Shown: positions 2,640-40,811 of the stretch, one piece after another | Position numbering within the stretch: the stretch's first letter is position 1 | How the letters are laid out: every line of letters starts with the position of its first letter | Source: Planctomycetota bacterium | Lineage (GTDB): Bacteria; Planctomycetota; GCA-002687715; DRQF01 | Reading direction: 5' to 3' | Assembly (NCBI GenBank): GCA_027001995.1 | Contig: JALTLO010000022.1 | Location: forward strand, 816 to 64,815 | DNA: 64,000 nucleotides | Made by a program: the position numbers and the translations under genes | The notes under the pieces: model-generated | Seen by the model: only the letters and a program-made list of their open reading frames with translations | Database searches by the model: none | What the model was told of the DNA's origin: nothing

Positions 2640-2814
2640 GTTGATCGCTCCCACGGTTCTTCTTGCATAATTATCGACCGCTGGGAGCCGAGACTTGAAC
2701 ACCCAAATGGGTATTCAAGAGTATTGAGTCTATTTGAAGCAGACCTTAGCCCAACTCATTCACAATCGCCTTGCTGGGACAGCGTGGGTGAACTGCTCGG
2801 CTTAAACCATCAAG

Positions 2815-3777
2815 TCAGGAGGCAAGCTCACGGGTCTTCGTGAGAGACGACATAACTTCTTGGATCCCTTGTGGGACCGTCCTGGTGATCTCAAAACCCA
2901 GTGTTTTTTTGATTCGGTCAAAACTGACACGATAGTCGCGAGGATCTTCGTCTTTCTTGACGCGCTCGATCTCAAGCTCGCCCCCGACAGCGTCGCAAAT
3001 CATTGAAACCAACTGCCCCTTCTTATAGTTCTCGGAAGTATCACCGACGTTGAATACCTCTCCGCCCACGTCTTCAGCAGGAGCTTCCAAAGCCAACAGA
3101 ATAGCCCGGGCCGCATCATGAACATGAACATAAGGACGCCAGAATTGCTCGCCATAAACCACAAGCTCTCGGTCTTGCAAGAGATCTCGGGTGAACTCAT
3201 TCACCGTGAGGTCAAAGCGCATCCGCGGCGATGTGCCAAATAAAGTGGCAAACCGCAGAAGGATAGGCATACCTGTTGGTGGCAGACCATGCTCACACTT
3301 GGCCAAAAGATACTGCTCAAACTCGACTTTCGACCGAGCGTACAAAGAGACTGGCCGAAGCTCAGATTTTTCGTTCACATACCCCGTAGCGTCAAGCATG
3401 CGGCCGTAATTGCTGCAAGTCGAAGCAAAGAGAAAACGCTTCACATCAGCAGACACGGCTAAACTATGGAGCTGGATTGAGGCATCAAAATTGACTTCCT
3501 GAGCCAATTCTGGCTCTTTCGCACAGGCGGGATCACCAACAATTCCAGCCAAATGAACCACAGCGTCGATGCCGCACAAGGCGGAACCAACCACATCCAC
3601 ATCGCGAATGTCGCCTTCGATGAATTCGAATTCTTTGACTGTTGCAAGATCACTCAGATGATCCTGCGGACCATGAAGCAAACTATCCAACACGCGAACT
3701 TCATGCTGCTCATTCAAGAGGTGACGCGTGAGGACACTGCCCAAGTAACCTGCGCCGCCGGTGATCAATACGTGCAC
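2815..3777 (-). CDS. NAD-dependent epimerase/dehydratase (extended SDR), candidate nucleotide-sugar 4,6-dehydratase or epimerase of the nonulosonate pathway
   Basis: It has the Rossmann motif ITGGAGYLGS and the catalytic YxxxK (YARSK). The likely GTG start at 3777 overlaps the stop of the upstream gene by 1 nt, with GGGGGAAAG just upstream. The tool's TTG start is at 3792. Confidence 0.8.
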   Translation of the reverse strand: MHVLITGGAGYLGSVLTRHLLNEQHEVRVLDSLLHGPQDHLSDLATVKEFEFIEGDIRDVDVVGSALCGIDAVVHLAGIVGDPACAKEPELAQEVNFDASIQLHSLAVSADVKRFLFASTCSNYGRMLDATGYVNEKSELRPVSLYARSKVEFEQYLLAKCEHGLPPTGMPILLRFATLFGTSPRMRFDLTVNEFTRDLLQDRELVVYGEQFWRPYVHVHDAARAILLALEAPAEDVGGEVFNVGDTSENYKKGQLVSMICDAVGGELEIERVKKDEDPRDYRVSFDRIKKTLGFEITRTVPQGIQEVMSSLTKTRELAS

Positions 3778-4823
3778 TAGTCTTTCCCCCAACCATTTCT
3801 CGCTCGGCTTCGACCAAGATCGTTGATGGCTTTAGCCACTCTCTGGCGGCCGCCTCCATCAATAAATCTCCTGCCGGCTTTCGCCATGCCAATCCTGATG
3901 TTCGGGTCGCATGCTGTTGCAACCAGTCCCACCAATTCCCGGCGAAGGCAATCCTCTTCGGCGGAGGATACAGCTTGCGCCGCTCCAACCGCCACCAACG
4001 CTTCCGCGACATCTACTTCATGAGCTGCGGTGGGCACCAAAACACAGGGTGTTCCAGTCACCGCAAGTTCGTAAGCCGTTCGGCCAGCAGCCGAAACGAC
4101 AAGGTCAGCCGCTACCATGAGTATCGACAAATCCGGTACATTTTCTTGCACCCGAACCTGGGTTTTCATCCGAAAATGTGCGTTTTCTACCACTGTGGCC
4201 TTGGCGAAAGCCGGCCCCTGCACCACAGTAATATGCTCTCCTATACCATTTTCTACCAAAGAGTTAGCGACTATGGGAGTAAAACCCCGGGGGTCTGCCC
4301 CCCCCATGGTCACCAAAATCTCTTTGACCGGCCCGGTCTTGGCACGGCTATTTCGTTTCTTGTCGAAGTCAGAACCCAGAATTGCGTATCGGGGCCCCAA
4401 CAATTGTCGACCAATTTCCCCAGCATAGACATGATTGCTCTGAATGAGGCTGCCGTTCACCAAGAGATCCGCCCTCAAGGTTTTCTGCCCCAGGTCATCG
4501 AGAATCACAACAATGACCCCCATTTGCTGAAGCTGCTGTGTTATCCCTTCCGGTGTTTGGAGCAAGTCGAAAACAACCACATCAGGCTTCAGTGCTTGCA
4601 TGGCTGCGAGTTCCTCATGGGCAGAGGCTGATTCGCTCAACACAGTGACTTGAAAGTCCCGCCTACGAATGAAGTCATTCCCCGCCTGCTCCTCCCGCAT
4701 AAGAAAAAGAGACTCAGCTCCGTAGAACTTCATCTCTTCTGCCAAAGCCAGGCATCGAAACGCATGGCCCATGGCGACATGGAGTATTTGACCAGCATCA
4801 ACACGAAAGAGAATTCGAGTCAT
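3777..4823 (-). CDS. pseG: UDP-2,4-diacetamido-2,4,6-trideoxy-hexose hydrolase, PseG-like (GT-B fold, MurG-related)
   Basis: The N-terminus MTRILFRVDAGQILHVAMGHAFRCLALAEE matches the PseG-family signature (LFR-D, GxGHxxRcLaLA). The C-terminal half resembles a GT-B fold. The start is an ATG. Confidence 0.7.
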   Translation of the reverse strand: MTRILFRVDAGQILHVAMGHAFRCLALAEEMKFYGAESLFLMREEQAGNDFIRRRDFQVTVLSESASAHEELAAMQALKPDVVVFDLLQTPEGITQQLQQMGVIVVILDDLGQKTLRADLLVNGSLIQSNHVYAGEIGRQLLGPRYAILGSDFDKKRNSRAKTGPVKEILVTMGGADPRGFTPIVANSLVENGIGEHITVVQGPAFAKATVVENAHFRMKTQVRVQENVPDLSILMVAADLVVSAAGRTAYELAVTGTPCVLVPTAAHEVDVAEALVAVGAAQAVSSAEEDCLRRELVGLVATACDPNIRIGMAKAGRRFIDGGGRQRVAKAINDLGRSRARNGWGKD

Positions 4824-4867
4824 CCTTCAAACGAACCTTGCGTCACAGTTATCATGAACAAAAACGG

Positions 4868-5635
4868 TTAGTTTCCAGAGCGCATTCTCTGCCAATCTTC
4901 AGTGGCGAAGTTTTGCTCAACGTCAGCATTGACCACGAACATTTCCGGCATTTCATGAGCCAAGGATAACACCTCGCCCAGGTTAAGAGGACTATTGCGC
5001 CGGCTCAATTCATCTTCAACTTCCCGGATCAACTCCAGGTCCACATCGGTGTCGATGGTCAGCCGCAAGTGATCTTGATGAAGATGATCGGGGGCTGCTA
5101 GACGTCCAAAGCAGAACTTCTCCGGATGTTTCGTGATATAGGCGTTGATGTGTTCACGTTCATTGGGACCCTTTGCCTCTTTTTCAGCACGGGCCAGAGC
5201 GGTTGCAGAAAATACTCCAACGTCAGCCCCTAGTGGCAAACCAGGCATCCAGGCGTAGTCCACGTTTTCCCGTTGTGCAAAAGACACAAGATATTCGATG
5301 ATCTTTGGATCAACCAAGGGATTGTCGCCGTATGCCACCACAACGGACTGGCAGCCAGAATTCTTCACCGCCTCTGATACGCGCCCCAAGACATCGTCGC
5401 ATGAGCCGCGAAAAACACGAATTCCCAAGCCTTTGGCAATCTCCACCAACTCGTCATCAGAAGACTTTGTTGTGGTGGCAAGAATCACCTCATCAAGGAA
5501 ACGGACCTGCTTCATCTGCCGAATAACACGCTCAATCAATGGTCGCCCGCCGATGTCGGCCAGAGCTTTTCCTGGCAGGCGAGTCGAGTCATAACGCGAG
5601 ACAATAACACCAGCGGTTGTTCCATTTTCAATCAT
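4868..5635 (-). CDS. CMP-nonulosonate cytidylyltransferase (CTP_transf_3 family, SpsF/PseF/NeuA-like)
   Basis: The N-terminus IVSRYDSTRLPGKALADIGGRPLIERVI resembles SpsF and acylneuraminate cytidylyltransferases. Its ATGA start overlaps the stop of the upstream synthase gene. Confidence 0.75.
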   Translation of the reverse strand: MIENGTTAGVIVSRYDSTRLPGKALADIGGRPLIERVIRQMKQVRFLDEVILATTTKSSDDELVEIAKGLGIRVFRGSCDDVLGRVSEAVKNSGCQSVVVAYGDNPLVDPKIIEYLVSFAQRENVDYAWMPGLPLGADVGVFSATALARAEKEAKGPNEREHINAYITKHPEKFCFGRLAAPDHLHQDHLRLTIDTDVDLELIREVEDELSRRNSPLNLGEVLSLAHEMPEMFVVNADVEQNFATEDWQRMRSGN

Positions 5636-6639
5636 GATGGGCTCCCTTGGCCAACGAGATCTAGGTTTAATTCTTGGTTCTTTTCAATGTCCACCTGAGC
5701 CACTTCCCCAACTACAAGAGCGCGCTGCCACGGTGCCAACTGAGCTTCTGGCCGAACACAAGACACCATGGCATCTGTGATCACTGTACCCTTGGCAATA
5801 GGACCGCTGGCGAAAAGCCCACGGCGATAAAGACGACTTTCCGCACGGTCCGGGCGGCTCTCGTCCACGCAAGCAGAACCCAAAGCGGCTTCAATCACAC
5901 GGATTCCTCGCACCATGCTGGCCAACTCTTCTGGGTCCTGGGACATAGCATGGTCCGGACCAGGCAGAGACTTGTCTGTAGTGAAATGTTTTTCAATGAC
6001 ACAAGCGCCCAAGGCAATGGCCCCGAGAACAACATCGTTGCCTAAGACATGATCACTCCAACCAACATGGGTCCCGAACTCTTCGGCCATCCACGTCATT
6101 GAGCGCAGATGAACATCTTTGGGGTCAGTGGGATACTTCGAAATACAATGCAGGAGAACAACATCATGACAGCCCCCTTCGGCCAGTGCTTCTAAAGCTT
6201 CATTGATCTCCCCATCAGTCGCCATGCCCGTAGACACAATGACTGGCTTACCCTTGGACGCCACATGACGCAAGAGAGGGAGATTCGTTAGGTCCATCGA
6301 AGCAATCTTGAAAGCCGGAGAGCCCAATTCGTCAAGCATGTCGACGCTCCCGGTGTCATAAGGCGTTGACAAGAAATGTACGCCCAACTCTCTGGCGCGA
6401 TTCGCCAGTGTCACATGGGCATCACGATCCAATTCACCATGGCGAATGACATCAAAATGGGCGACAGAGTCCAACACCAATTGATTGGCATGATAGGTCT
6501 GAAACTTAACAGCGTTTGCACCAGCGGCGGCTGCGGCCTCGATCATTTCAATGGCGAGATCCAACTTGCCTTCGTGGTTGAAGCCAATTTCTGCGATCAC
6601 GTAGGCTTGGCTGCCAATTTCAAATTCAGCAATATTCAT
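5632..6639 (-). CDS. N-acetylneuraminate/pseudaminate synthase family (NeuB/PseI-like) with C-terminal SAF domain
   Basis: The motif NIAEFEIGSQAYVIAEIGFNHEGKLDLAIEMIEAAAAAGANAVKFQTY is a NeuB signature, and the C-terminus has a SAF-like segment. The listed 432-aa ORF is over-extended. The in-frame ATG at 6639 (MNIAEFEIG) lies 20 nt downstream of the preceding gene's stop at 6659. Confidence 0.85.
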   Translation of the reverse strand: MNIAEFEIGSQAYVIAEIGFNHEGKLDLAIEMIEAAAAAGANAVKFQTYHANQLVLDSVAHFDVIRHGELDRDAHVTLANRARELGVHFLSTPYDTGSVDMLDELGSPAFKIASMDLTNLPLLRHVASKGKPVIVSTGMATDGEINEALEALAEGGCHDVVLLHCISKYPTDPKDVHLRSMTWMAEEFGTHVGWSDHVLGNDVVLGAIALGACVIEKHFTTDKSLPGPDHAMSQDPEELASMVRGIRVIEAALGSACVDESRPDRAESRLYRRGLFASGPIAKGTVITDAMVSCVRPEAQLAPWQRALVVGEVAQVDIEKNQELNLDLVGQGSPS

Positions 6640-6658
6640 AGTTATTTCTTTCGTGGGT

Positions 6659-7990
6659 TTATTCCCGCCACACGCCTCCTTGCCATTCCATGTTTTCCAT
6701 GTCCCAGTCGTCTGGAACCCATTCGGCGCCGTGCTTTTCAACGCCATGTCGGCAGTAGTCACATCCCCGCAATTGACAGCGACGATTGTCTTGATGAATC
6801 TTACGGATCTGATTGAGTTTCTTTGACTGCCAAGCGTCCGCGATTGTTGTCTCAGGGTTCTTGACAGTACGCCAGACACCGTCTTCCCCGCGCACCTTCT
6901 TTTCATTCGTACCAAGGTAGCGGCCGACAACTAAGTTCTGCTCTTCGTTGTGAGCGCCGGTGCAGGGCAAAAGAACACCGTTGGCTGAAAGAGTGAGTCT
7001 TTGGAAGGGATACTGGCAAGCCCAGTCGTCTAGAACCACATCATCCGGCAAGTCATCTTCGCGAAAATCCAAGAGTTCATTTACCGTAATCCAGCCCACA
7101 CCAGCTTTCTTCATGAAGTCATGATAGGCCTGGGGGTCTTTGGCGATAGCGGGATAAATCGTGTTTGTGCGGATCTGGGGCCGTGTCTTACCAGCGGCAT
7201 CTCGTGCGGCTACAAGTCGCTTGATGTTGCTGGCGACCACCTCGAAGGCATCATAGTCCGTGCCTTCTTTGTTCTTCGGCGTACGAATCTTGTTGTAGAC
7301 TGTGTTAAGACCATCAACAGAGAAGCTAATCCAGCTAGGCTCGGCTTCCACAAGAGCCCCTATCATCTCGTCGTCAAGAAGCTGGCCATGAGTGAGAGAG
7401 GTAATCTCCAAGATCCCCTTCTCCCGGGCATATTTCAAAACATCCGGAAAACGAACTTCTTTGCCATCTTCGTCCCGCCCGCGATACATGGATGATTCAC
7501 CACGCCAACTAAAGAGCATCGACGGAACATCCAAGCTGGCGCATTCATCGATGGCCGCCTTCACCACGGGCCAAGGCAACATCCTTTGGGCTCCAACGGC
7601 TGCATCCTGAAACTCCTCCGTCATGGTGTAGCACATGCTACAGCCCAAATTGCAAGTGCTCACAAGTTCAACAGTGACGGCCAGAGGCTGAGGACCGGGA
7701 TCAAACTCCTTGGCCCTACGATACCACTCAGACCGATAGTGATCGTAGCGCTGGCGTTCTTTGATTGTTGGAAATTGGGCGTGGAGGAAAGCCTCCTCGC
7801 GACTCATCGTATCGAAACTGAATTGAGAAGCATTCACTGGGACTTGGTCCTTGTGCCCCTGCCAGTCCTTCTTGAGCTGTTCTTCTCGCGGTCGAATCGA
7901 CGTTGTGCTGCGCGGCATTTCTTTCCCCAGTTGGCCCCAAGTAACCATGACCTCGATCTCATGAATGAGCCCCGAAAGGTGCATATTCAT
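6659..7990 (-). CDS. Radical SAM enzyme with C-terminal SPASM-like Cys cluster
   Basis: It has the CxxxCxxC motif (STCNLGCSMCYT) and a C-terminal Cys-rich tail (CQLRGCDYCRHG). Alternative starts lie at 7948 (MVTWGQ) and 7807. The first 14 codons of the listed ORF are made up of one copy of the CGATCTCATGAATGAG repeat. Confidence 0.75.
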   Translation of the reverse strand: MNMHLSGLIHEIEVMVTWGQLGKEMPRSTTSIRPREEQLKKDWQGHKDQVPVNASQFSFDTMSREEAFLHAQFPTIKERQRYDHYRSEWYRRAKEFDPGPQPLAVTVELVSTCNLGCSMCYTMTEEFQDAAVGAQRMLPWPVVKAAIDECASLDVPSMLFSWRGESSMYRGRDEDGKEVRFPDVLKYAREKGILEITSLTHGQLLDDEMIGALVEAEPSWISFSVDGLNTVYNKIRTPKNKEGTDYDAFEVVASNIKRLVAARDAAGKTRPQIRTNTIYPAIAKDPQAYHDFMKKAGVGWITVNELLDFREDDLPDDVVLDDWACQYPFQRLTLSANGVLLPCTGAHNEEQNLVVGRYLGTNEKKVRGEDGVWRTVKNPETTIADAWQSKKLNQIRKIHQDNRRCQLRGCDYCRHGVEKHGAEWVPDDWDMENMEWQGGVWRE

Positions 7991-8092
7991 GCGGTTCCAC
8001 GATTTGAGTTATCGGCGGCTTCAGCATGAATATTCAGTAGAATCGAGAAAGAAGATGAGGCGGCTGGAGAAAAGGCGTTTTGTGGTGCCAAA

Positions 8093-8721
8093 TTAGGCCA
8101 AATAGCGGATAACCTGAAAACACTCCACAGCCCTCAATCCGAAGGCGCGAGCATCCCTTTCATTCGCCAGGAGTATTTCTTCAACCAAAGCTGAAAGCCC
8201 TCTGCCGATCTCAGAATCATGGGCCAAGCAAGCTGCCTTTTTCTGCTCAAAGGACTCCGAAATATCTCGAATCAAGCGCCCGTCAAAAACCACAGATCCG
8301 GGATAGAGATTGCTACGATAGCAAAGAAACGTGGGTATATGCCGGCAAGCTGAAAGAGATGCACGGGCCAAGTTGTGATGATCAAGGTGAACATCCCCCA
8401 GCCAATGCCCATAGACAATATCCGGCTTCCATTGGTCGACTAAGCCCCGAATCGCCACAACCAAGGCCTCGTCACAAGCCAAATTGTTGGTTTCGAATTC
8501 TCCGCAGACAAGCTTCTCTACCCCCAGAATTTTGGCAGCAGCCTCTCCTTCGGCCCGGGCAACTCCCGCATCCCGAAGGGACTTCCCATTGAGACCGACG
8601 TAACCTGAATGGGTAGCCACAAACACGGCCACCTGGTCACCATCGGCTGTGTGTTTGGCCAAACTGCCACCGCAGCCAATCTCCACGTCGTCAAAATGTG
8701 CGCCAATGGCGAGTATTCTCA
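8093..8721 (-). CDS. PIG-L/LmbE family N-acetyl-sugar deacetylase
   Basis: MRILAIGAHFDDVEIGCGGSL matches the AHPDDE-type motif, and downstream His and Asp residues are present. The listed ORF carries a 22-aa N-terminal extension from a TTG start. The ATG (MRIL) is the likelier start. Confidence 0.8.
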
Positions 8722-8913
8722 TAGATTTCTCGTTGCTTTCCTCTTTGAGAATCGGGCTTTCAACCAAATAGCATGAATGAAAACCCAAGTTAGGAGCGAA
8801 TTTAGCCGACTAATTATGCATGGGGGCGACATGGAACACCCCGTTTGGGCTCATTCCTGGGCCACTGATATGTGCTATCCTACTGAGGATAAACAGCTTG
8901 TGAAGGAGCCCCT

Positions 8914-10062
8914 ATGTGGAAGGTACCCCTGTTTGACAGCAGCATCGGAGCTGAGGAGAAAGACGCCGTCTTGGCCGTTCTCGACTCTGGCTGGCTAACC
9001 ATGGGCCCCATTACCCAGGACTTTGAGCGGCGTTTCGCCGCTCACATCGGAGCCGAGCATGGCATCGCTGTCGCCAATGGCACCGCAGCTCTGCACATGA
9101 GTTTGGTGGCCTGTGACATCCAAGAAGGCGACGAAGTTATCTGTCCTTCCCTCACTTTCTCCGCCACGGCCAATGCAATTCTCCATGCGGGGGGTACGCC
9201 AATTTTTGCCGATGTCGCAAGCGAACTCAGCCTCAACATTTCTGCTGAGACGATCAAGCCCAAGATCTCGCCGATGACGAAAGCGATCTTAGTCGTCCAT
9301 TACGCTGGCTATCCATGCGACATGCCAGCCATCAATGCCCTGGCCGATGAGTATGGCCTCAAAGTTATCGAAGATGCAGCCCATGCCCCGGGTGCCCATT
9401 GGCAAGGCAAGTCTTGTGGAACTTTTGGTGCAACTGGCTGCTTTAGCTTCTACAGCAACAAGAACATGACCACCGGGGAAGGTGGCATGATTACTACCAA
9501 CGATGCTGAGCTGGCCGATCAATTGAGATTGCTACGCTCCCACGGCATGACGACGAGCACCAGCGATCGTCACAGCGGTAAGGCCCGTAGCTATGATGTA
9601 ACCACATTGGGATTCAACTACCGTATTGATGAGATTCGTAGTGCTATTGGTCGTTGCCAATTGGAGAAGCTCAAGGTGCGCAACCAAAAGCGAGCAACCC
9701 TCGACCAACTCTATCGCCAGCTTCTTACCGATGTAGAGGAAATCGTCGTCCCATTCGACTCAAATGTAGCATCAAATGGTTCCTCCTGCCACGTCATGTC
9801 AACAATTCTAAAAGCTGACTTAGGTGTTTCGGCTTTCCGTCAGTCGCTCAAGGAATCGGGTGTGCAAACAAGCCATCATTACCCGGCGATACACTTGCTT
9901 GCATGGTATCGCCAGACCTTCGGATACCAGGGTGGTCTATTGCCAATCACCGAGTCTGTATCGGAATCTCAGGTGACCCTTCCTCTCTATCCTCAGATGA
10001 CGGAAGAGATGGTAGAAATCGTTGTTGAGGCCATAAAATCTGCTTTGGTACGGAGTCATTAG
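8914..10062 (+). CDS. DegT/DnrJ/EryC1/StrS-family PLP-dependent sugar aminotransferase (PseC/LegC-like)
   Basis: The N-terminus (GPITQDFERRFA...AVANGTAALH) and the PLP-lysine region SFYSNKNMTTGEGG are present. An AAGGAG Shine-Dalgarno sits 6 nt upstream of the ATG. Confidence 0.85.
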   Translation: MWKVPLFDSSIGAEEKDAVLAVLDSGWLTMGPITQDFERRFAAHIGAEHGIAVANGTAALHMSLVACDIQEGDEVICPSLTFSATANAILHAGGTPIFADVASELSLNISAETIKPKISPMTKAILVVHYAGYPCDMPAINALADEYGLKVIEDAAHAPGAHWQGKSCGTFGATGCFSFYSNKNMTTGEGGMITTNDAELADQLRLLRSHGMTTSTSDRHSGKARSYDVTTLGFNYRIDEIRSAIGRCQLEKLKVRNQKRATLDQLYRQLLTDVEEIVVPFDSNVASNGSSCHVMSTILKADLGVSAFRQSLKESGVQTSHHYPAIHLLAWYRQTFGYQGGLLPITESVSESQVTLPLYPQMTEEMVEIVVEAIKSALVRSH

Positions 10063-11778
10063 ATGCGTATTTTAGGCCTCAATCACGACATGTTCATTTC
10101 GTCTGCCGCCTTGATAGAGGACGGAAACGTCATCGCCGCTGTGGCCGAAGAGAGACTCACGCGAGATAAGCGCACTCGGGCTTTTCCCCGCAAGTCTATC
10201 GCCTATTGCCTCGAAGAAGCAGGCATCAAGATCGAAGATGTGGACGCCATCGCAACGTCCTGGAACCCAGGCGCCTACTTTCGCAAATTCAATCCCCTGG
10301 TTTCAAACAAACGTCGACACATGGCTGAGCATCTCTTTGCGGTGCCTGACCATTTGATCGATATGTTCCCCCAAGGAGACCACACAGCTCCCTGGCTCGA
10401 ACTGCGTATCCCCATCATGGGCCACATGTGCCGCGTCTTCTATGTCACCCATCATAGTGCTCATGCAGCAAACGCCTATCATCTGTCGCCTTTCGAGGAT
10501 GCGGCCATCTTGACTGCTGATTCCCAAGGAGAATACGAATCCACAACATTCCAGCATGGGCAGGGCAGCACGATCAGTAAACTCCGTTCCATAGACTTCC
10601 CCCAATCTCTGGGAGCTTTCTACGCTACATTCACCGAATTTCTTGGCTTTCGACCCAACTCTGATGAGTGGAAAGTCATGGCCTTGGGTGCCTACGAAGA
10701 GGGCCACAACCCTTATGACGACATTCTAGAAGAGGTGGTATCCCTGGATCAAGACGGAGGGTACACCTTCGATTTATCCTTCTTCCAAGGATTCATGCCA
10801 GACAAACTTAATCTTTACACCCCTCACCTCATCGCGCGCTTTGGCGAGGCACGTCAAGCTGACGAAGAATTGTGCCAAAGGCATTTCCAGATCGCCGGCG
10901 CCGTCCAAAGACGAGCGGAAAATCTAGCATTTCACATGATGCGCCAACTCCAAAAGGAAACCGGCTCCAAGAATCTTTGCGTCGCCGGAGGGTTCTTCAT
11001 GAACAGTCTGCTCAACGGCAAGATTCGCGAAAACACGCCTTTCGAAAAGGTCTTCATCTCATCCTGCCCTGACGACTCTGGCAATGCCATTGGCGCTGCC
11101 CTTTATGCCATGAATGACATCTTGGGCAACGACACCCGGGTCCCACAGACTCACAACTATTTTGGACCAGCTTTTGGCAACACCGAGATCGCAGAAGCCA
11201 TTGAAAAGTATGGCCTGAAAGCTGAACCTTGCGAAAATATCGCTGAGTCATGCGCCCAACTCCTTGAGGAGGGAGCGCTGATTGGCTGGTTCCAAGGAAG
11301 AATGGAATTGGGCCAAAGAGCCCTTGGTTGCCGATCGATCTTGGCCGACCCCCGGCAAGCTTCCACCCGGGATCAAGTGAACTTGGCAGTAAAATACCGC
11401 GAGAAGTTTCGACCATTCGCACCTGCAATTCTAAAGGAAGAAGCAGCCAAGTGGTTCAACATCGATTCTGATGTGGAGGTCCCGTTCATGGAACAAGTCC
11501 ACATGGTGCGGCCAGAAAAACGAGATGCCATCCCTGCTTGTGTGCATGCTGATGGAACAGGACGGCTTCAAACCGTGGACGCCGAAACAAACCTCTTGTT
11601 TCATCAGCTGATTTCTGCATTTCGCAAGAGGACTGGGGTTCCGGTCTTGCTCAATACATCTTTTAACCTCAATGGCGAGCCTGTTGTTTCGAATCCCACT
11701 GACGCCATTCGGACGTTCTTCTCTTGTGGCTTAGACGTCTTGGCTATGGGTAACTATTTAATCAAGAAGAACGGATGA
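10063..11778 (+). CDS. NodU/CmcH-family carbamoyltransferase
   Basis: The N-terminus MRILGLNHDMFISSAALIEDGNVIAAVAEERLTRDKRTRAFP is typical of the family, and the protein is 571 aa. It is translationally coupled to the upstream gene (TAGATG). Confidence 0.85.
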   Translation: MRILGLNHDMFISSAALIEDGNVIAAVAEERLTRDKRTRAFPRKSIAYCLEEAGIKIEDVDAIATSWNPGAYFRKFNPLVSNKRRHMAEHLFAVPDHLIDMFPQGDHTAPWLELRIPIMGHMCRVFYVTHHSAHAANAYHLSPFEDAAILTADSQGEYESTTFQHGQGSTISKLRSIDFPQSLGAFYATFTEFLGFRPNSDEWKVMALGAYEEGHNPYDDILEEVVSLDQDGGYTFDLSFFQGFMPDKLNLYTPHLIARFGEARQADEELCQRHFQIAGAVQRRAENLAFHMMRQLQKETGSKNLCVAGGFFMNSLLNGKIRENTPFEKVFISSCPDDSGNAIGAALYAMNDILGNDTRVPQTHNYFGPAFGNTEIAEAIEKYGLKAEPCENIAESCAQLLEEGALIGWFQGRMELGQRALGCRSILADPRQASTRDQVNLAVKYREKFRPFAPAILKEEAAKWFNIDSDVEVPFMEQVHMVRPEKRDAIPACVHADGTGRLQTVDAETNLLFHQLISAFRKRTGVPVLLNTSFNLNGEPVVSNPTDAIRTFFSCGLDVLAMGNYLIKKNG

Positions 11779-12473
11779 AAACGGTCTGCATTCATCAACC
11801 CGATTTTGCTCCTTGGTTAGGATTCTTTGACCGGCTCATAGACGCCGATGTCTACGTTGTCTTCGACGATGCGCAATTTCTACGAAGAGGATGGCACCAC
11901 CGGGATAAGATTATAGGACCCCAAGGGACCCAGTGGCTTACGGTCCCCGTCCTCAAAAAAGGCCGCTACCACCAAGAGATACGAGACGTCAAAATCGACG
12001 AAAGCACGAACTGGCGGCGAAAACACTTGCAAACATTAACCAGTGTCTATGGTAGTCGCCCTGGCTTTGAATCGACTCACCATCAAATCACGGAGATATA
12101 CGATCGCCAGCATGAGCGCTTGATCGACCTCAACATGGATCTCATTTCTTGGCTCCTGAGAGTTCTTGACATCGAAGTTCAGATCTGCATGAGCTCTGAA
12201 TTCGGCCTCAAATCTAAGTCTACGGATCGTTTAGTCGAGTTAACACAAGCTTTGGGGGGCACGACGTACATTTCAGGTTTGGGTGCCAAGAACTACTTAG
12301 ACGAAGAGGCATTTCGCCAGCAAAACATCAAAGTACGCTGGCAAGAGTTCCTCCACCCCACTTGGGATCAAGGCCAAAGTACGTTTCTTTCTATGCTTTC
12401 CACACTAGACACCTTGTACCAAGGTGCAACTCAGACGAAGATGCTGTCCAGAGAGGGGCAGGACGAAAGTTGA
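11775..12473 (+). CDS. WbqC-like family protein (function unknown, found in O-antigen/nonulosonate clusters)
   Basis: The N-terminus MKTVCIHQPDFAPWLGFFDRL matches the WbqC-like signature (IHQPxxxPWLGxF). It overlaps the upstream gene's stop as ATGA. Confidence 0.6.
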   Translation: MKTVCIHQPDFAPWLGFFDRLIDADVYVVFDDAQFLRRGWHHRDKIIGPQGTQWLTVPVLKKGRYHQEIRDVKIDESTNWRRKHLQTLTSVYGSRPGFESTHHQITEIYDRQHERLIDLNMDLISWLLRVLDIEVQICMSSEFGLKSKSTDRLVELTQALGGTTYISGLGAKNYLDEEAFRQQNIKVRWQEFLHPTWDQGQSTFLSMLSTLDTLYQGATQTKMLSREGQDES

Positions 12474-14796: not shown

Positions 14797-14965
14797 GTGC
14801 GAAAAATGACTCACTCAATTCATCTTGATCCCCACCCAATCAGAGAGAAGGATCTACCTGTTGATGATGTCTCGCAATCTACGGAATTATCTTTAGCTTA
14901 AGATCCTTTCGTCGCGGGTTTCAGCACCTTCGCTGTTCAACGGAATTGGAAAACTTGGAGAATAC

Positions 14966-16571
14966 GATGATGATGAGCCGTACCTTCGCATGCTTCTTAG
15001 CACTTGCCTTGGTTCTCGGATTTTCAGGCTCTGCACTGAGCCAGGACAGAGATGACTTGGCGCGAGAAGTGCGCCGCCTCAACAAGAAACTCAATGCAAT
15101 CAGCACCGTTCAAGAACGGCTTGTTGGTGAGAACGAGCATTTACGCAAGGACAATGCTGAACTGCGTAGTTTGATCAACAACGAACGAGTTCCAGTGAGC
15201 GAACTGGAAACCTCGTTAAATGCTCTGGGCGACACAATCGAAAACGCTGGAACGGTAGTAGAATCAACTGCCAACCCCATCACCCTTTCTGGGCAATTCC
15301 GGTTTCGTGCCGGTTTCATTTCGAACCGTGATTTCGGCGCAAGCCCGAATTCGAATGGTGGCGACTTGGGAGATGACAGCGGTACTTTCGTTGATGCTCG
15401 GATCAACGTGGCCTTCGACTTCGCCCTGGCCCGCAATGTAACAACTCACTTCGAATTGATTTCCTCTGGACTTTTCGAGAACGGAAACACAAACCAAAAC
15501 ACGGGAACGTTGGCTGAAGTCGATCTTTATCAAGGTTACGTCCATTTCGACAAGCTTTTCGGAACCGACGAGATTGGACTCAGAGCAGGGCGACAAGAGA
15601 TTGCACTTGGCAACGAGTTGTTCTTTGGCAACAATAGTTTCTTCGGTGGTGAGACATTTGACGCAACCCTTGTCTGGTGGGCGCAGAAAGAATGGAGCCT
15701 CATTTTCGTATGGGCAAAATTCGACATCGCTCAAGCCAGCAATCCAAGTGGCCAACCTTACCCCACCTACTTAGCTGGCCATGGGTTCGATGACGACGAG
15801 GCTTACGCCCTCTACTTCACCCTCAACACCATCGAGAATCACGTTCTTGACCTCTACTACTTCTTCCTCAACATAAACAACGTTGCGGGAGCATCTACGG
15901 GAACTTTGGGCAACGGATTCCCACCAGACACATTTGCTCACGTCCTTGGCATTCGCTTGGCCGGAGACCACGCCAGCATCGCTGAAGGGTTGGACTACAA
16001 CATTGAATTCGCCTACGAGACTGGGGACATCAATAGTGCCGCCATTGACTTGGAAGGGTTTATCGTCGAAGCAGAGTTAGGCGTTACCTTCAACGCCGAC
16101 ACTAAATTCCGGGTGTTTGGACGCTTCGTTTATGCGAACGGCGCCAGCGGCAACAATTCTGGATTTGTTCCTTTGTTTCCTGATCGTCAGGAGCAAGTCA
16201 ATTGGGACGACCACACTGCCAGTCGGGCTCGTTGGGGTTTGATGAACATCATTCCTTTGACCAACGTAATCTCCGGACAAATCGGATTCACCTTCCGTCC
16301 CGCAGAGGATTGGATCTTCGGTATGACCGTTCTCGGAGCTTGGCGTGACGAAGATGTCATCACGACGGATGGTAATTCCAAAGGTGGTATTGGTTGGGAA
16401 ATCGATGCTTTCGCGGACTACCGTTATAGCACCGACACCACGATCAGCTTGGGTCTCGGGGTCTTCCTTCCTACAGAAGGCGCGCCGCTTGAGAATTCCC
16501 CCATTAGCGCTGGCAATAACGAAGACGAAGCCGCATTCCTCTTCTATCTCCAGTCACTGACAACCTTCTAG
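14966..16571 (+). CDS. Outer-membrane beta-barrel protein (porin-like) with N-terminal periplasmic coiled coil
   Basis: It has a signal peptide (MMMSRTFACFLALALVLGFSGSALSQ) and a heptad coiled coil (LNKKLNAIS...LRKDNAELRSL). The rest alternates hydrophobic, Gly/Asn/Asp-rich beta strands, and it ends in a terminal Phe (LQSLTTF). GGAG lies 8 nt upstream of the ATG. Confidence 0.6.
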
Positions 16572-16628: not shown

Positions 16629-16966
16629 CTAGATGTCGCCCCACAACAAACGACACTCCTCGAATAAAAACCCACGACCACTGGGTATCCAAAAGATTAT
16701 TGGTGAGATTCCTCAATTCTCCTCAACAGCCATGCAAAGGGCTTCCGACAAGGGCTACAAGGAAAAAATGCCGTCAGGACAAATCGTTTCCTCGTGAAAC
16801 AGGACTTCCGGATAGGCACCAACGGGCCCAGATGCGATCGCGGCAGAACCGAACGCTGCGGAGAAATGGATAGAACCCAAGAAAAACTGCTTTAAGTGCA
16901 GGGGGCATCCTCCCGTGAGGATCAGTTCATAGGGCTCGATTTAATTGGAATAGTTTGGAGAGAAGG

Positions 16967-18562
16967 ATGCTTTATCGCACCGTAATTTGCACATTCACTT
17001 TGGCCCTCACTTTGGGCAGCGCGTGCTTGGGACAGACACAAGATCGAAATGACTTTGAAGCTAAGCTAAGACACTTAAACGCAAAGCTCGAGAACATTGG
17101 CGCCACCCAGGAGCGTCTGATCATCGAGAACGCAAAACTGCGCCGTGACAATGACGAACTCCGTGACCTTGTTGATAACCGACAAACGGCACACTCGGAG
17201 CTCGAGGTTTCCTTGAATGCATTGGCAGATGCAGCTCTCGATTCTGAAGGCGCAGCAGTGGTCTCCAATGCTAACCCCATTACCGTAAGTGGCGCTTTCC
17301 GATTCCGTCTTGGGTTCACAGCCAACCGTGATTTCGGAAGCAGCAATCAGGGCAACGACTCCAGCGACGACAACGGCACTTACATTGACGGACGCATCAA
17401 TGTTGCTTTCGACTTTGCTTTGGCGAGGAACGTCACCGGACGATTCGAGATGATTTCCGCTGGCCTATTCGAGAATAGTGCAGCCAATCACAACACTGGA
17501 ACGCTTGATGAAGTTGATCTCTACCAAGGCTACATTGCTATCGACGGGATCTTTGGACGCGATGAGTTAGGACTCAAAATCGGTCGACAGGAGATTGTCT
17601 TAGGCAGTGAACTGTGGTTTGGGAACAACAGTTTCTACGGCGGCGAAACATTCGATGCGGTTCTCGCATGGTGGAATCAAGACGAGTTCTTCCTCGGTTT
17701 GGTATGGGCCAAGATGGATATTCGAAGCACTTACAATGCGGCTGGACACCCCTACGTTCCTTTTCAAGTTGGCAATGGCTACGATGACAATGACGCCTTC
17801 GCCGCTTACTTCACCTTAAAGACAATCGAGAACCATGTTCTGGATCTCTACTATTTCTTCTGGAACGACAACGGTCCCGGAGGAACATTCGGAACCTTGG
17901 GCAATCTCTTCCCTGCTGACACATTCGCCCATGTTTTTGGCATTCGCTTAGCTGGTGACTTGCCAAACGTGGCGGCAGGTTTGGACTACAGCTTGGAATT
18001 CGCTTATGAAACCGGTGACATCGACAGCTTAGGCATCGACATGGAAGGTTTCATCTTTGAAGCCGGTGTTGGAATAACTTTCAACGCTAACAATCTCCTT
18101 CGTGTGGCAGCCGGTTTCATCTTTGCAGAAGGACCAGATTCTGGTGACTCTGGCTTCGTCCCTCTATTCGTCGACCGTCACGAGCAGGTCAACTGGGATG
18201 ACCACACAGCTAGGCGCGCTCGCTGGGGTTTGATGGACATCATTCCCCTCACCAACGTGATAGCTGGTCAAATCGGCCTGACATTCCGACCTGCTGAAGA
18301 TTGGATCTTCGGTGCCACCTTCTTGGGGGCTTGGCGGGATCAATCGGTCTTGACCACAGACGGCGATACCGAAGATGGTATTGGCTGGGAGATCGATGTA
18401 TTCGCCGACTATCGCTACAGCGCCGAAACAACAATCAGTGTTGGAGTTGGGGTTTTCATCCCGAATGAAGGGGCGCCGCTTCAAAACTCAGCTCTGAGTG
18501 CCGGTAACAATGAGGATGACGCAACCTTCCTGATGTACCTGCAAGCATTGACCACCTTCTGA
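16967..18562 (+). CDS. Outer-membrane beta-barrel protein, tandem paralog of 14966-16571
   Basis: It is about 60% identical to the upstream gene and has the same architecture: signal peptide, coiled coil, beta-barrel region and C-terminal LQALTTF. GGAGAGAAGG lies upstream of the ATG. Confidence 0.6.
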   Translation: MLYRTVICTFTLALTLGSACLGQTQDRNDFEAKLRHLNAKLENIGATQERLIIENAKLRRDNDELRDLVDNRQTAHSELEVSLNALADAALDSEGAAVVSNANPITVSGAFRFRLGFTANRDFGSSNQGNDSSDDNGTYIDGRINVAFDFALARNVTGRFEMISAGLFENSAANHNTGTLDEVDLYQGYIAIDGIFGRDELGLKIGRQEIVLGSELWFGNNSFYGGETFDAVLAWWNQDEFFLGLVWAKMDIRSTYNAAGHPYVPFQVGNGYDDNDAFAAYFTLKTIENHVLDLYYFFWNDNGPGGTFGTLGNLFPADTFAHVFGIRLAGDLPNVAAGLDYSLEFAYETGDIDSLGIDMEGFIFEAGVGITFNANNLLRVAAGFIFAEGPDSGDSGFVPLFVDRHEQVNWDDHTARRARWGLMDIIPLTNVIAGQIGLTFRPAEDWIFGATFLGAWRDQSVLTTDGDTEDGIGWEIDVFADYRYSAETTISVGVGVFIPNEGAPLQNSALSAGNNEDDATFLMYLQALTTF

Positions 18563-18666: not shown

Positions 18667-20994
18667 TCAAGAAGCAGGAGAGACTTTAGGCGAGGAAGGA
18701 GCGACGGCCGAGCCCCCTTCTGTCTTCCCGGTGGTGACAAAGGACCTTCCTGTCTTCAGCCCAATAACGAACCAAGCAAAACCTGCCACCCCAGACATGA
18801 AGATCACATCACCAATGATGCGCAACCAACGCAGGGTCTCCATGAATGGTTGTTGCATGAATTCTGCTGACCTGGCGTACCACATACCCTGCTCAACGCT
18901 TGCCCAAGTTTGAAACAAGCCAATTGGCAGAAGACTAAGCAAAACCATAAGCCCCAAACCAATGTTCATGCTCCAGAATGCGTAGCGCAAAGTACCTTGA
19001 CGCCAAACATGCTGAATTGTCAGCCTGCGCAAAATGACCAGAATCAAGCCCAGTGACAGCAGGCCATAAACACCGAACAAGGCGGTGTGAGCATGGACGG
19101 GTGTCGTATTCAGGCCTTGCATGTAGTAGAGGGAGATAGGGGGATTGATCATGAAGCCGAAAATACCGGCTCCAACAAAGTTCCAGAATGCAACCCCAAC
19201 GAAGAAGGTGATAGGCCAACGATAGCGCGTGGCCCAGTTCGCCAACTTCTGACTGCGGAAAGTCTCCCATGCTTCGAAGCCAACCAAAACCAATGGCACG
19301 ACTTCCAGAGCAGAGAAGCTGGCCCCAATAGCCATGGCAGAGATAGGTGTGCCGCAGAAGTAGAGATGATGCGCCGTCCCCGGGATTCCACTGACAAGGA
19401 ATATAGAAGTCGAGAACAAAGACGCCCGCGTCGCGCTGGACATACGAATCAAGCCAAGCTTTGCAAAAATGAAGGCAATGGCGGCGGTGGCGAAGACTTC
19501 GAAGAATCCTTCAACCCAGAGATGAACCACCCACCAACGCCAGTACTCTGCGATAGTCAAATGGGTCCTCGCGCCGATGAGGAGTGCCGCCGTATAGAAT
19601 AGACCGATTGCAACTGTCGAACCGGTGAACAGCAAGACCAAAGACCTGGAACGATCCTTCTTCACCAAAGCAGGCCACATGCCACGCAGCATCAAGAAGA
19701 GCCAAAGAACAACGCCAATGACAAAGAGAATCTGCCAGAAACGGCCTAAGTCAAGATACTCATAACCTTGATGCCCGAACCAAAAGCTCGACTCCAAGGA
19801 GAGCTTTTGATGGATCGCCAAGTACTCACCGGTCAACGAACCAACAACGACAACGAGAAGAGCGCCAAAGAGGACATTGACCCCCAGCTTCTGATGCTTC
19901 GGCTCACGCCCACCAATGATAGGAACCAAGAATAGACCAGCCCCAAGGAAAGCAGTGGCGATCCAGAAGAGTGCTGTTTGAAGATGCCAGGTTCGTGTCA
20001 GGCTGTAGGGCAAGTAGTCGGCTAGAGGGAAACCAAAGAATGCCTTACCCTCAACGGTATAGTGAGCTGTGATTGCCCCCAAAATGACTTGGACACAGAA
20101 AAGGGCAACGACGATATAAGCGTACTTTGCTACTGCTTTCATCGAAGGTGTGACTTCAATTTTGTCCAGAGGATCACGGTCCGGAACAACAAGTTCACCC
20201 TCTTCCCGATCGGTGAAGGCTTTGTACCACACAAGAGCACCGATACCGGCAATAAGCAGAACGATACTGATGATGGACCATAGAATGTTGGCCGAACTTG
20301 GTTCATTGCCAACAAGGGGCTCGTTAGGCCAGTTATTCGTGTACGAAACAGACGAGCCATCCCGCTCTGTGCTAGCAGCCCAAGAGGTCCAGAAGAAGAA
20401 CTTAGTCATGGCCTGCCGCCGTTCCAAGTCCGGCAAGGTATTGTCATTGAGGGCGTAGTCATCCCTCAACTGAGTCAACTCAGACTTGTCACCAAACAAA
20501 CCGACGTAATGATCAGCAACCCGCTTCATCGCTTCAGCGCGATTCGAAGAAATGATCAGAACGTCTTTTGCCTTATCGTAGCGGTTAGTCCGCATTTCTT
20601 TCTTGAGAGCAGCAGAAACAAGAGTTTTGTCGTCTTCTCCCAAAGACTCAAAAGACAAAGCCCCTCGTTCTTGAGACAGGATTTCCCTCAACTCGATAGC
20701 TTCCCGGTGCAACCAATCCGCAGACCAGTCTGGTGCTTGATAGGCGCCATGCCCCCAGACAGAACCATTTTGTTGACCACCGATACTCTGCCAGACAACT
20801 TGCCCTTGCAAGATGTCATCCTTCGTCATGATAGCCTGACCATCTTCCGTTTGAATCGTCCCAGGAATCGGCGGTGCTTGTCGATAAATCTCCCGGCCCG
20901 TCCAACCTAAGATCGTAAATGTGATGACCAGGACGATCCCCAGTCCAATCCAAAGTTTGCGGTAGGAGATGACGCTACCCGTCGGGTTGCTCAT
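18667..20994 (-). CDS. norZ: Quinol-dependent nitric oxide reductase (qNOR, NorB/NorZ large subunit, heme-copper oxidase superfamily)
   Basis: The motif WWVVHLWVEGFFEVF contains HLWVEG, the NorB helix-VI His plus catalytic Glu. His-rich transmembrane helices are present (GTAHHLYF, HAHTALFGVYG). The protein is about 775 aa with an N-terminal extension, as in qNOR. The listed ATG at 21057 sits inside the sigma-54 promoter. The ATG at 20994 has AAGGAAG 5 nt upstream, so I use 20994. Confidence 0.85.
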   Translation of the reverse strand: MSNPTGSVISYRKLWIGLGIVLVITFTILGWTGREIYRQAPPIPGTIQTEDGQAIMTKDDILQGQVVWQSIGGQQNGSVWGHGAYQAPDWSADWLHREAIELREILSQERGALSFESLGEDDKTLVSAALKKEMRTNRYDKAKDVLIISSNRAEAMKRVADHYVGLFGDKSELTQLRDDYALNDNTLPDLERRQAMTKFFFWTSWAASTERDGSSVSYTNNWPNEPLVGNEPSSANILWSIISIVLLIAGIGALVWYKAFTDREEGELVVPDRDPLDKIEVTPSMKAVAKYAYIVVALFCVQVILGAITAHYTVEGKAFFGFPLADYLPYSLTRTWHLQTALFWIATAFLGAGLFLVPIIGGREPKHQKLGVNVLFGALLVVVVGSLTGEYLAIHQKLSLESSFWFGHQGYEYLDLGRFWQILFVIGVVLWLFLMLRGMWPALVKKDRSRSLVLLFTGSTVAIGLFYTAALLIGARTHLTIAEYWRWWVVHLWVEGFFEVFATAAIAFIFAKLGLIRMSSATRASLFSTSIFLVSGIPGTAHHLYFCGTPISAMAIGASFSALEVVPLVLVGFEAWETFRSQKLANWATRYRWPITFFVGVAFWNFVGAGIFGFMINPPISLYYMQGLNTTPVHAHTALFGVYGLLSLGLILVILRRLTIQHVWRQGTLRYAFWSMNIGLGLMVLLSLLPIGLFQTWASVEQGMWYARSAEFMQQPFMETLRWLRIIGDVIFMSGVAGFAWFVIGLKTGRSFVTTGKTEGGSAVAPSSPKVSPAS

Positions 20995-21045
20995 TATTGT
21001 CTTCCTTGTGTAGATGGACCCAAAAGCAGGTCGCACCTGCCACAA

Positions 21046-21061
21046 GGCAATTCCCATGCCA
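21046..21061 (-). promoter_or_regulatory. Sigma-54 -24/-12 promoter of the qNOR gene
   Basis: The minus strand reads TGGCAT-gggaa-TTGCC, a near-perfect TGGCAC-N5-TTGCA. It lies about 50 nt upstream of the ATG at 20994. Confidence 0.65.
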
Positions 21062-21162: not shown

Positions 21163-22701
21163 ATGGAACAACTCGACTCACTCCACGCCATCGCCGTCGA
21201 TCTCAATCAGTCCCTCTTGGCCAATGATCGCTATCAGAGATTGCTCACAGCAATCGATAAAGTGGCCCCCAGCGATGCCTCCTGCCTATTGCGCTTGGAA
21301 GGAGAAGAAATGGTCCCTCTTGCAGCCCGAGGTTTGGTTCCAGAGGCCTTGGGAATCCGCTATCGCCTGAGCGATCACCCCCGGTTGGCAATCATTGCTG
21401 CGGCGGAAAAGCCAGTGCGCTTTGCCAAAGACTCCTCCCTGTCTGATCCATTCGACGGTTTGGTGGAAGGCAATGCCCTTGAGGTCAATCACATCCACGC
21501 CTGCTTGGGGTGCCCTCTGCGGGTAGATGGCAAGCTCATCGGGATTCTCACCCTCGACGCTCTGAACCCAGAAGCCTTCCTCACCTTGGAAGACCTTTTT
21601 CTTCAAACGTTGGCAGCTCTTGCTGGGGCCGCTATGAGGACAGCAGCCCTCATCGACTCTCTATCTGAACAAGCCCGAAGAGAAGGGATGGTGGCAACAG
21701 AACTCATGAAGAGTTCTTTTCGAGGCGCCAATCAAGAAATGCTCGGAACATCTGCCGCGATGGAGAGATTGCGCTCGGAAATCAAATTGGTGGCGAGCAC
21801 CGACTATGCCGTTCTGATCACCGGAGAAACGGGTTCAGGGAAGGAATTGGTAGCCGCGGCGATTCACGAGTTCTCCCAAAGACCTCGGGCCCCTTTCATC
21901 CGGGTGAACTGCGCTGCCTTGCCAGAATCTCTGGCTGAGAGCGAGCTTTTCGGCCACAAACGGGGGGCGTTTTCCGGAGCCGATAACGACCGTGAAGGGA
22001 AATTCGTGGTCGCCGACGGGGGCACCCTCTTCCTCGACGAAATCGGCGAGTTGCCGTTGCCTCTCCAGGCAAAGCTACTTCGAGCCCTCCAAGATGGTGA
22101 GATTCAACGGGTGGGTGAAGACCGACAACGCAAAGTAGACGTGCGCCTGGTCACCGCCACCAACCGCAATCTAGAGTCTGAGGTGGCCGCTGGCCGCTTC
22201 CGGGAAGATCTCTATCACCGATTGGCGGTTTATCCCATTGTCGTCCCTGCACTTCGGGAACGGGCCTCTGACATCCCCCTCCTCATCGGCCATTTCTGCG
22301 AACGCATCCGCCGAAGGCACGGACTTCAAGAGGTCAGAATCGCCCCGGAGCTACGAGATCGACTCCAGCGAGCCAATTGGCCCGGCAACGTCCGCGAGTT
22401 GGAAAATACCATTGGTAGGCTCGTTCTACGGGCCTCGGGAACTTTGGCAGCCGGCACGAAGGTCTTTGTCCACGACTCCAGTACTTTGGCCTTAGAAAGC
22501 CAAATCCGACCTGGTTCACACCAGGATGCCAACCCGGAGGTGAGAACTGGCCTGAGGGAATCTGTTCGCGACTTCGAACGCCGTCTCATTATGAGAACGG
22601 TGGAGTCCAACGAAGGGAATTGGGCAGCCGCTGCCCGAAGTCTCAAGATCGACCGCAGCAATCTCTACAACTTGGCTAAGCGCTTAGGGTTGCGAGCATA
22701 G
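21163..22701 (+). CDS. norR: Sigma-54-dependent transcriptional activator NorR (GAF - AAA+ - HTH)
   Basis: It has an N-terminal GAF domain, the Walker A [15 protein letters not shown], the GAFTGA-type loop [16 protein letters not shown] and a C-terminal HTH. It is transcribed divergently from the qNOR gene. Confidence 0.85.
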   Translation: [512 protein letters not shown]

Positions 22702-36801: not shown

Positions 36802-36810
36802 CCGAACCAA

Positions 36811-36833
36811 GACAAGGTCAAACCCGCCTTGTC
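36811..36833. terminator. Hairpin between convergent genes (GACAAGG-tcaaacccg-CCTTGTC); no U-tract
   Basis: The stem-loop is read from the sequence. The terminator function is inferred. Confidence 0.3.
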
Positions 36834-40793: not shown

Positions 40794-40811
40794 GAGAAAC
40801 AGAAACGGACG

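Follow-up and report, generated by a model that had tools for sequence, protein, structure and literature searches.

Known relatives of the enzyme considered here are the O-carbamoyltransferases TobZ, NodU, NovN, GdmN, and CmcH, which belong to antibiotic or Nod-factor clusters. In TobZ, carbamoyl phosphate and ATP are converted to carbamoyl-AMP by a YrdC-like domain, and the carbamoyl group is then passed to the acceptor by a Kae1-like domain. Nonulosonic acids (NulOs) decorate flagella, S-layers, capsules, and lipopolysaccharide (LPS), where the groups carried on their N and O atoms determine surface charge and recognition by the immune system and by phages. Pseudaminic acid (Pse) is made by the canonical PseB-C-H-G-I-F pathway, and the N-acyl groups of Pse and legionaminic acid (Leg) are tailored at the CMP-sugar stage by the acetamidino synthases PseA and PtmG. 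The present study concerns a TobZ/NodU/CmcH-type carbamoyltransferase gene and an adjoining WbqC-family gene in a 64,000-nucleotide stretch of DNA from a Planctomycetota bacterium (contig JALTLO010000022.1 of assembly GCA_027001995.1); the whole stretch is referred to as the window. An earlier note on this DNA had proposed that the two proteins act as a pair in making a carbamoylated or amidinated nonulosonate. On balance, the locus probably encodes a non-canonical pseudaminic-acid-type NulO pathway with two separable tailoring modules, in one of which the carbamoyltransferase would act on the NulO or on a precursor of it. Its complement of tailoring enzymes is unusual for a nonulosonate cluster.

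The carbamoyltransferase and WbqC genes are the second and third of a four-gene run on the plus strand (Table 1). The TAG stop codon of the aminotransferase gene (10060-10062) abuts the ATG of the carbamoyltransferase gene with no gap, and the carbamoyltransferase stop and the WbqC start share the sequence ATGA at 11775-11778. Both domains of the carbamoyltransferase, Carbam_trans_N (PF02543, E 1.5e-54, residues 2-347) and Carbam_trans_C (PF16861, E 7.4e-68, residues 398-569), score far above their Pfam cut-offs, while WbqC matches PF08889 with 231.5 bits against a cut-off of 21.3, its residues 8-216 aligning to profile positions 1-210 of 218. Because these matches are strong and full-length, the two open reading frames (ORFs) are real genes and not chance ORFs, and the coordinates, the gene identities, and the translational coupling between the sugar aminotransferase and WbqC are as the earlier note gave them. 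The same order of aminotransferase, carbamoyltransferase, WbqC, and GNAT acyltransferase was found in six more genomes from three phyla (L003-L006, L009, and L016), in which WbqC is 48-68% identical to that of the window. The closest syntenic relatives are the Planctomycetota metagenome-assembled genomes L003 and L004, where the order of at least 11 genes is kept, and a contig of NCBI assembly GCA_015485455.1 codes for an identical WbqC. A promoter and terminator scan gave only background-level signal and so was uninformative about operon boundaries.

Over its full length, the carbamoyltransferase can be aligned with the enzymes of known structure 7xb6, NovN, GdmN, and TobZ (E 7e-95 to 1e-80), and it has an N-terminal Kae1/ASKHA-like transfer domain followed by a C-terminal YrdC-like carbamoyl-adenylate domain. 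Residues H130/H131/H134, D153, D337/D338 (in a DDSG segment), K444/R446, and S533/N535 do not vary among 37 homologues and match identical residues in the solved enzymes, namely the metal-site histidine and aspartate set and the KxR and SxN motifs of the YrdC-like domain; we take these to correspond to the residues named in the description of TobZ. With two domains, full length, and catalytic motifs kept, the protein is a NodU/CmcH-type enzyme as had been claimed. Since the metal-site and YrdC-like motifs are kept, the chemistry of TobZ is expected, and by analogy the enzyme should form carbamoyl-AMP and transfer the carbamoyl group. HypF, an identity that had been set beforehand against the prediction, was rejected: the protein has only Carbam_trans_N and Carbam_trans_C, in the order seen in TobZ, and has neither the acylphosphatase nor the zinc-finger domains of HypF. 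Although the window enzyme resembles TobZ, NodU, NovN, GdmN, and CmcH in full-length architecture and motifs, it falls in a separate clade, the members of which (42-97% identity) are in NulO clusters and not in antibiotic or Nod-factor clusters, and its acceptor may be an amine.

A divergent operon on the minus strand (681-8788) begins 125 bp upstream of the plus-strand run, and the two operons together look like a pseudaminic-acid-type NulO pathway plus four extra enzymes. The window shares with the canonical pathway a PseG-like hydrolase, a PseC-like aminotransferase, a GNAT, a NeuB-family synthase, and a cytidylyltransferase, but it does not have a PseB-type (Polysacc_synt_2) dehydratase, and it adds a PIG-L family de-N-acetylase, WbqC, a radical S-adenosylmethionine (SAM)/SPASM enzyme, and the carbamoyltransferase. 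PseG is the only core enzyme to exceed its NCBIfam equivalog cut-off. The top model for the aminotransferase is PseC, with 327 bits against a cut-off of 423.5; the synthase is below the cut-offs of both the NeuB (336 bits) and PseI (296 bits against 340) models; and the PseF model gives the cytidylyltransferase 27 bits against 206. A PseB-type identity was rejected for the short-chain dehydrogenase/reductase (SDR), which the PseB model matches at only E 6e-10. The GNAT has a weak match to models of dTDP-4-amino-4,6-dideoxygalactose acyltransferases and another weak match to MshD. Two starts in the divergent operon were refined from the translations and from the points at which homologue alignments begin. 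The radical SAM/SPASM gene, which has the cluster motif CNLGCSMC and homologue alignments beginning at residues 20-26, probably starts at Met25 (7918). The listed NeuB ORF has about 97 codons in excess that overlap the radical SAM gene, and the likely start is the methionine of MNIAEF at 6639, 20 nt past the radical SAM stop.

A co-occurrence survey, which the earlier note had proposed, was made with two sets of 80 loci, one from genomes and centred on relatives of WbqC, the other from metagenomes and centred on relatives of the carbamoyltransferase (42-56% identity to the window enzyme). The proteins of the window cluster were mapped by tblastn, neighbours were counted within 10 kb of the anchor gene, and adjacency was counted separately. 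NeuB is a neighbour of the carbamoyltransferase in 41/80 loci (20 adjacent), and is present in 19 of the 27 loci whose flanks each extend for 4 kb or more; WbqC is a neighbour in 10/80 (3 adjacent). Around WbqC, the most frequent neighbours are PIG-L (63/80, 27 adjacent), the aminotransferase (58/80, 5 adjacent), and NeuB (55/80, 10 adjacent), followed by GNAT (19/80, 15 adjacent) and the carbamoyltransferase (11/80, 6 adjacent). The carbamoyltransferase clade is genuinely tied to nonulosonate synthesis. The idea of an obligate carbamoyltransferase-WbqC pair fails because the two co-occur in so few loci from either side; WbqC is not the specific partner of the carbamoyltransferase, and their pairing here is incidental, one recurring arrangement. 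The functional pair of the earlier note is not borne out; the carbamoyltransferase-NeuB link is strong. In three distant loci (L084:8695-9627, L101:11707-12564, and L117:12785-13633), a gene for a xylose-isomerase-like TIM-barrel protein (AP_endonuc_2) lies beside the carbamoyltransferase and NeuB genes; the cluster in the window has no such gene.

The carbamoyltransferase also travels with a particular radical SAM/SPASM enzyme. Among the 80 genome loci, a radical SAM/SPASM protein at least 50% identical to that of the window is found with the carbamoyltransferase in seven and without it in one (L007), giving a table of 7/3/1/69 (Fisher p = 3e-7), and its gene is directly 3' of the carbamoyltransferase gene in L050, L053, L084, L085, L087, and L088. 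The members of this subfamily are 56-87% identical across phyla, and the co-occurrence is near-exclusive. Loci L010 and L084 have a common frame of SDR, NTP-transferase, aminotransferase, PIG-L, WbqC, and N-acyltransferase, with NeuB, cytidylyltransferase, and PseG at the other end, and differ only in the middle slot: in L010 it holds a radical SAM enzyme, a formyltransferase, a second radical SAM enzyme, and a methyltransferase, while in L084 it holds the carbamoyltransferase, a radical SAM enzyme 61% identical to that of the window, and the xylose-isomerase-like protein. In a sample of 28 loci where an acyltransferase gene comes after WbqC and the contig also has a radical SAM gene, another formyltransferase or GNAT beyond the first was seen in 0/8 carbamoyltransferase-positive and 14/20 carbamoyltransferase-negative loci (p = 0.002, a value that overstates independence as the loci are related). 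This distribution suggests that the carbamoyltransferase replaces the N-formyltransferase of sister clusters and would therefore acylate an amine. A cassette of radical SAM/SPASM, formyltransferase, radical SAM/SPASM, and methyltransferase genes lies between WbqC and NeuB in L010 (10555-14324) and in 13 similar carbamoyltransferase-free loci, which implies that Desulfobacterota, Omnitrophota, and Syntrophales have a further, elaborate modification of NulOs.

From the gene identities, the conserved catalytic motifs, and the co-occurrence counts, we infer substrates, an order of steps, and a product. In the core, the SDR and the aminotransferase would, according to their family assignments, give a nucleotide-linked 4-amino-4,6-dideoxy-HexNAc; the GNAT would acetylate the 4-amino sugar, PseG would free the hexose, NeuB would condense it with phosphoenolpyruvate, and the cytidylyltransferase would activate the NulO. 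The first tailoring module would consist of the carbamoyltransferase, together with its specific radical SAM/SPASM enzyme. By homology with TobZ, the YrdC-like domain would form carbamoyl-AMP from carbamoyl phosphate and ATP, and the Kae1-like domain would place the carbamoyl group on the NulO or a NulO precursor. The second module, of PIG-L, WbqC, and the N-acyltransferase, would be an N-acyl editing unit in which PIG-L strips an N-acetyl group while WbqC and the acyltransferase give the exposed amine a new substituent. These genes make it reasonable to predict a Pse-like nonulosonate with a carbamoyl group, a sugar that seems not to have been described, and the prediction is backed by the gene neighbourhoods of many loci. 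In the searchable literature, which leaves out most subscription journals, nothing was found that connects pseudaminic, legionaminic, or nonulosonic acids with carbamoyl groups or with carbamoyltransferases, no carbamoyl group figures among the NulO substituents listed, and nothing relevant was found on radical SAM enzymes with NulOs. The earlier note likewise knew of no established carbamoylation of Pse or Leg.

The same note had the carbamoyl group going to the 4-amino sugar or to the finished nonulosonate; the link to NulOs is upheld by the frequency of NeuB, and the acceptor may be a hydroxyl, the amine of the 4-amino sugar, or a different amine. Precedent in the family makes O-carbamoylation, at the hydroxyl of C4 or C8, the default, because every solved relative found is an O-carbamoyltransferase, and it is the outcome that would be somewhat favoured. 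A strong alternative, if a less probable one, is N-carbamoylation, in which a sugar amine would be the acceptor and the product a ureido-NulO. N-transfer is possible within the family, since StdF, a NodU-like enzyme, carbamoylates a lysine amine in vitro (PMC13174530). StdF, which belongs to a pathway for peptides that are made on the ribosome and modified after translation (RiPPs), is like the window enzyme in family and in the use of carbamoyl phosphate and ATP on an amine, but differs in being fused to a peptidase and acting on a peptide lysine (these two enzymes being compared by description only).

The proposed amidination was not borne out. Family searches of the ORFs of the window cluster gave neither a PseA/PtmG/WbuX-type amidotransferase nor a HisH/HisF module; such amidotransferases are PP-loop enzymes of about 370-400 amino acids, many of which have HisH/HisF-like partners. 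PseA and PtmG likewise tailor N-acyl groups of NulOs but form a separate family of about 45 kDa that is absent from the window. WbqC was considered as a counterpart of PtmG (Campylobacter jejuni Cj1324, the Leg acetamidino synthase) and dropped, PtmG being a PseA-homologous amidotransferase of about 45 kDa in contrast to the 232-amino acid WbqC. A distant and compact marine locus (L138:252-7714) encodes a radical SAM/SPASM enzyme, an aminotransferase, a carbamoyltransferase, NeuB, HisF-like and HisH-like proteins, and a 408-amino acid ORF with no Pfam match; carbamoylation and acetamidino-type (amidination) modules may coexist there as separate units.

The WbqC family itself comprises 16,991 clusters at 50% identity, nearly all of stand-alone proteins of about 230 amino acids, and only passing mentions of it were found among the searchable papers. 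Three of these clusters (P0251, P0275, and P0376) contain fusions with a GNAT at the N-terminus, and two (P0241 and P0247) contain tandem proteins with two or three WbqC repeats; the fusions and tandem proteins point to GNAT as the functional partner of WbqC. A GNAT or formyltransferase-like gene is directly 3' of WbqC in 28 loci analysed. No solved relative was found in the PDB by single-sequence or profile search. The confident AlphaFold2 model (pLDDT 92) is a Rossmann-like alpha/beta protein, for which Foldseek against the PDB gave only weak matches, the best being a tyrosyl-tRNA synthetase (E 0.07, probability 0.8, template modelling (TM) score 0.38). The weak matches are to class I tyrosyl-, lysyl-, and glutamyl-tRNA synthetases and to cytidylyl- and adenylyltransferases (TM 0.38-0.49). 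With the same model, a search of BFVD matched viral WbqC-like proteins well (TM 0.8) and then the same weak classes. Four viral proteins in BFVD (A0A6J4EHY4, A0A6B9SW24, A0A6B9STS8, and A0A411BJX6) have the WbqC fold, with TM 0.6-0.8 to the window model.

Several observations weigh against carbamoylation of a Pse-like NulO. The structurally characterized relatives found (TobZ, NovN, and GdmN) act on secondary metabolites and not on NulOs, and the product is a prediction from genes at every locus. The loci are related, horizontally shared clusters, so the co-occurrence counts are non-independent. Because the core enzymes other than PseG are below their equivalog cut-offs, the product is not necessarily pseudaminic acid; the sugar is Pse-like but may be another stereoisomer or a derivative. 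Some carbamoyltransferase loci (L053 and most of those with NeuB adjacent) show no PIG-L in the available sequence, which weakens the case for a PIG-L-freed amine as the carbamoyl acceptor. Locus L009 carries the four-gene run of aminotransferase, carbamoyltransferase, WbqC, and GNAT, but no NeuB within 10 kb. This four-gene run without NeuB also agrees with the enzyme decorating another sugar of the glycan or an unrelated metabolite and being merely co-located with NulO genes, as does the absence of NeuB from about half of the carbamoyltransferase-centred loci, many of which are on short contigs. Glycan clusters often mix enzymes for several sugars, and carbamoylation of heptose in the LPS core of Pseudomonas is a precedent for another glycan sugar. 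However, the adjacency of NeuB in a quarter of the 80 loci and its presence in most well-flanked ones are hard to explain without a functional link, and in the window the gene is translationally coupled and lies between the aminotransferase and the acetyltransferase of the NulO pathway; another target is rather improbable. Still more doubtful is a dedicated two-enzyme unit in which carbamoyltransferase and WbqC together add a carbamoyl or amidino group to an amino sugar or process such a group there. The ATGA overlap and the recurrence of the gene order in six more genomes fit such a unit, and in the nearest clade of carbamoyltransferases (identity of 50% or more) WbqC is present on most contigs of sufficient length. 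Yet WbqC is without the carbamoyltransferase within 10 kb in 69/80 genome loci and the carbamoyltransferase without WbqC in 70/80 metagenome loci; L050, L053, L084, L085, and L087 have both genes, but split by an acyltransferase gene or otherwise non-adjacent; the WbqC fusions found are all with GNAT and none with the carbamoyltransferase; and amidination would need an amidotransferase, of which the cluster has none.

The remaining alternative concerns the second module, in which WbqC might be an ATP-dependent amino-acid or carboxylate ligase. PIG-L, WbqC, and GNAT would then act like MshB, MshC, and MshD of mycothiol synthesis, deacetylating a sugar amine, ligating an amino acid to it, and capping the product at nitrogen, and the carbamoyltransferase would cap the aminoacyl amine or a second sugar amine. 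The mycothiol enzymes (and BshB in bacillithiol synthesis) resemble the module in the sequence of PIG-L, Rossmann-like protein, and GNAT, adjacent or fused. Consistent with this proposal, PIG-L directly 5' of WbqC and an N-acyltransferase directly 3' form a recurrent triad, GNAT-WbqC fusions exist, the window PIG-L best matches BshB1, the GNAT weakly matches MshD, and two independent structure libraries gave no other fold resemblances than those to cytidylyltransferases and class I aminoacyl-tRNA synthetases, of the HUP class to which MshC also belongs. An N-acetylglycyl group is found on a 4-amino sugar in the O antigen of Escherichia coli O121, the namesake of WbqC, and N-acetyl-aminoacyl NulOs are known. 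On the other hand, the fold matches are weak, there is no motif of HIGH/KMSKS type but just one invariant His7-Gln8-Pro9 after strand 1, and the core of any aminoacyl-tRNA synthetase is much larger than WbqC. There is no detectable sequence homology to MshC or BshC, and the likeness is one of gene order and a weak fold signal; ligase activity is a rather unlikely hypothesis. Carbamoylation of a NulO or its precursor, with PIG-L, WbqC, and the N-acyltransferase as a separate editing unit, remains the preferred reading.

Table 1. Genes of the two sugar operons, followed by other features of the window (positions counted from the first nucleotide of the window)
Feature	Position	Strand	Family match or remark
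673-amino acid protein with C-terminal GT4 domain; candidate transferase for the finished sugar	681-2702	-	Pfam Glycos_transf_1, residues 500-640; syntenic in L003 and L004
Extended SDR; probably a 4,6-dehydratase or epimerase of nucleotide sugars	2815-3792	-	Pfam Epimerase E 1.8e-43
PseG-like nucleotide-sugar hydrolase	3777-4823	-	NCBIfam TIGR03590 PseG, 159 bits (above cut-off of 153.55)
CMP-sugar cytidylyltransferase	4868-5635	-	Pfam CTP_transf_3 E 2.6e-31
NeuB-family nonulosonate synthase	5632-6639 (listed ORF 5632-6930)	-	Pfam NeuB E 1.2e-83, and SAF
Radical SAM/SPASM enzyme, about 419 amino acids from Met25	6659-7918 (listed ORF 6659-7990)	-	Pfam Radical_SAM and SPASM
PIG-L family de-N-acetylase, opens the divergent operon	8093-8788	-	Pfam PIG-L E 7.7e-20; nearest NCBIfam model BshB1
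DegT/PseC-like PLP-dependent sugar 4-aminotransferase, opens the plus-strand operon	8914-10062	+	Pfam DegT_DnrJ_EryC1 E 4.7e-121
TobZ/NodU/CmcH-type carbamoyltransferase, 571 amino acids	10063-11778	+	Pfam Carbam_trans_N and Carbam_trans_C
WbqC-family protein, 232 amino acids	11775-12473	+	Pfam PF08889 E 1.4e-68
WecD-like GNAT N-acetyltransferase, 322 amino acids	12501-13469	+	Pfam Acetyltransf_1, residues 208-308
AlgE-like outer-membrane porin	14946-16571	+	Alginate_exp
AlgE-like outer-membrane porin, paralogue of the preceding	16955-18562	+	Alginate_exp
Quinol-type NorB	18667-21057	-	
NorR-like sigma-54 activator	21163-22701	+	
Second polysaccharide-related stretch	34043-42410	+	
Flippase-like protein	34043-35662	+	Polysacc_synt_3
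GT2 glycosyltransferase	39144-40793	+	
532-amino acid ORF	40812-42410	+	No Pfam match

Elsewhere in the window, two tandem paralogous porin genes lie just 3' of the sugar operon and are followed by the NorB gene and a divergent gene for the NorR-like activator. Further along is the second stretch related to polysaccharides, which includes genes for a flippase-like protein and a glycosyltransferase.

For WbqC, attention shifts from the carbamoyltransferase to the PIG-L deacetylase and the N-acyltransferase as its partners. It is a speculative and rather unlikely extension that the carbamoyltransferase clade makes ureido (N-carbamoyl) NulOs in place of the N-formyltransferase, widely among environmental bacteria, and that PIG-L, WbqC, and GNAT form a mycothiol-like unit that deacetylates, ligates, and caps. 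If so, ureido NulOs would be present on Planctomycetota, Desulfobacterota, Chloroflexota, and marine taxa, the WbqC family, with about 17,000 clusters, would gain its first function, and the PIG-L-WbqC-GNAT unit would be one previously unrecognized. The cultured Desulfobacter latus AcRS2 (L053) carries a related cluster, with the carbamoyltransferase orthologue at L053:8437-10155, which makes the prediction testable. That the carbamoyltransferase clade is embedded in NulO clusters of numerous phyla and of marine metagenomes suggests that a widespread modification of these sugars has gone unseen.

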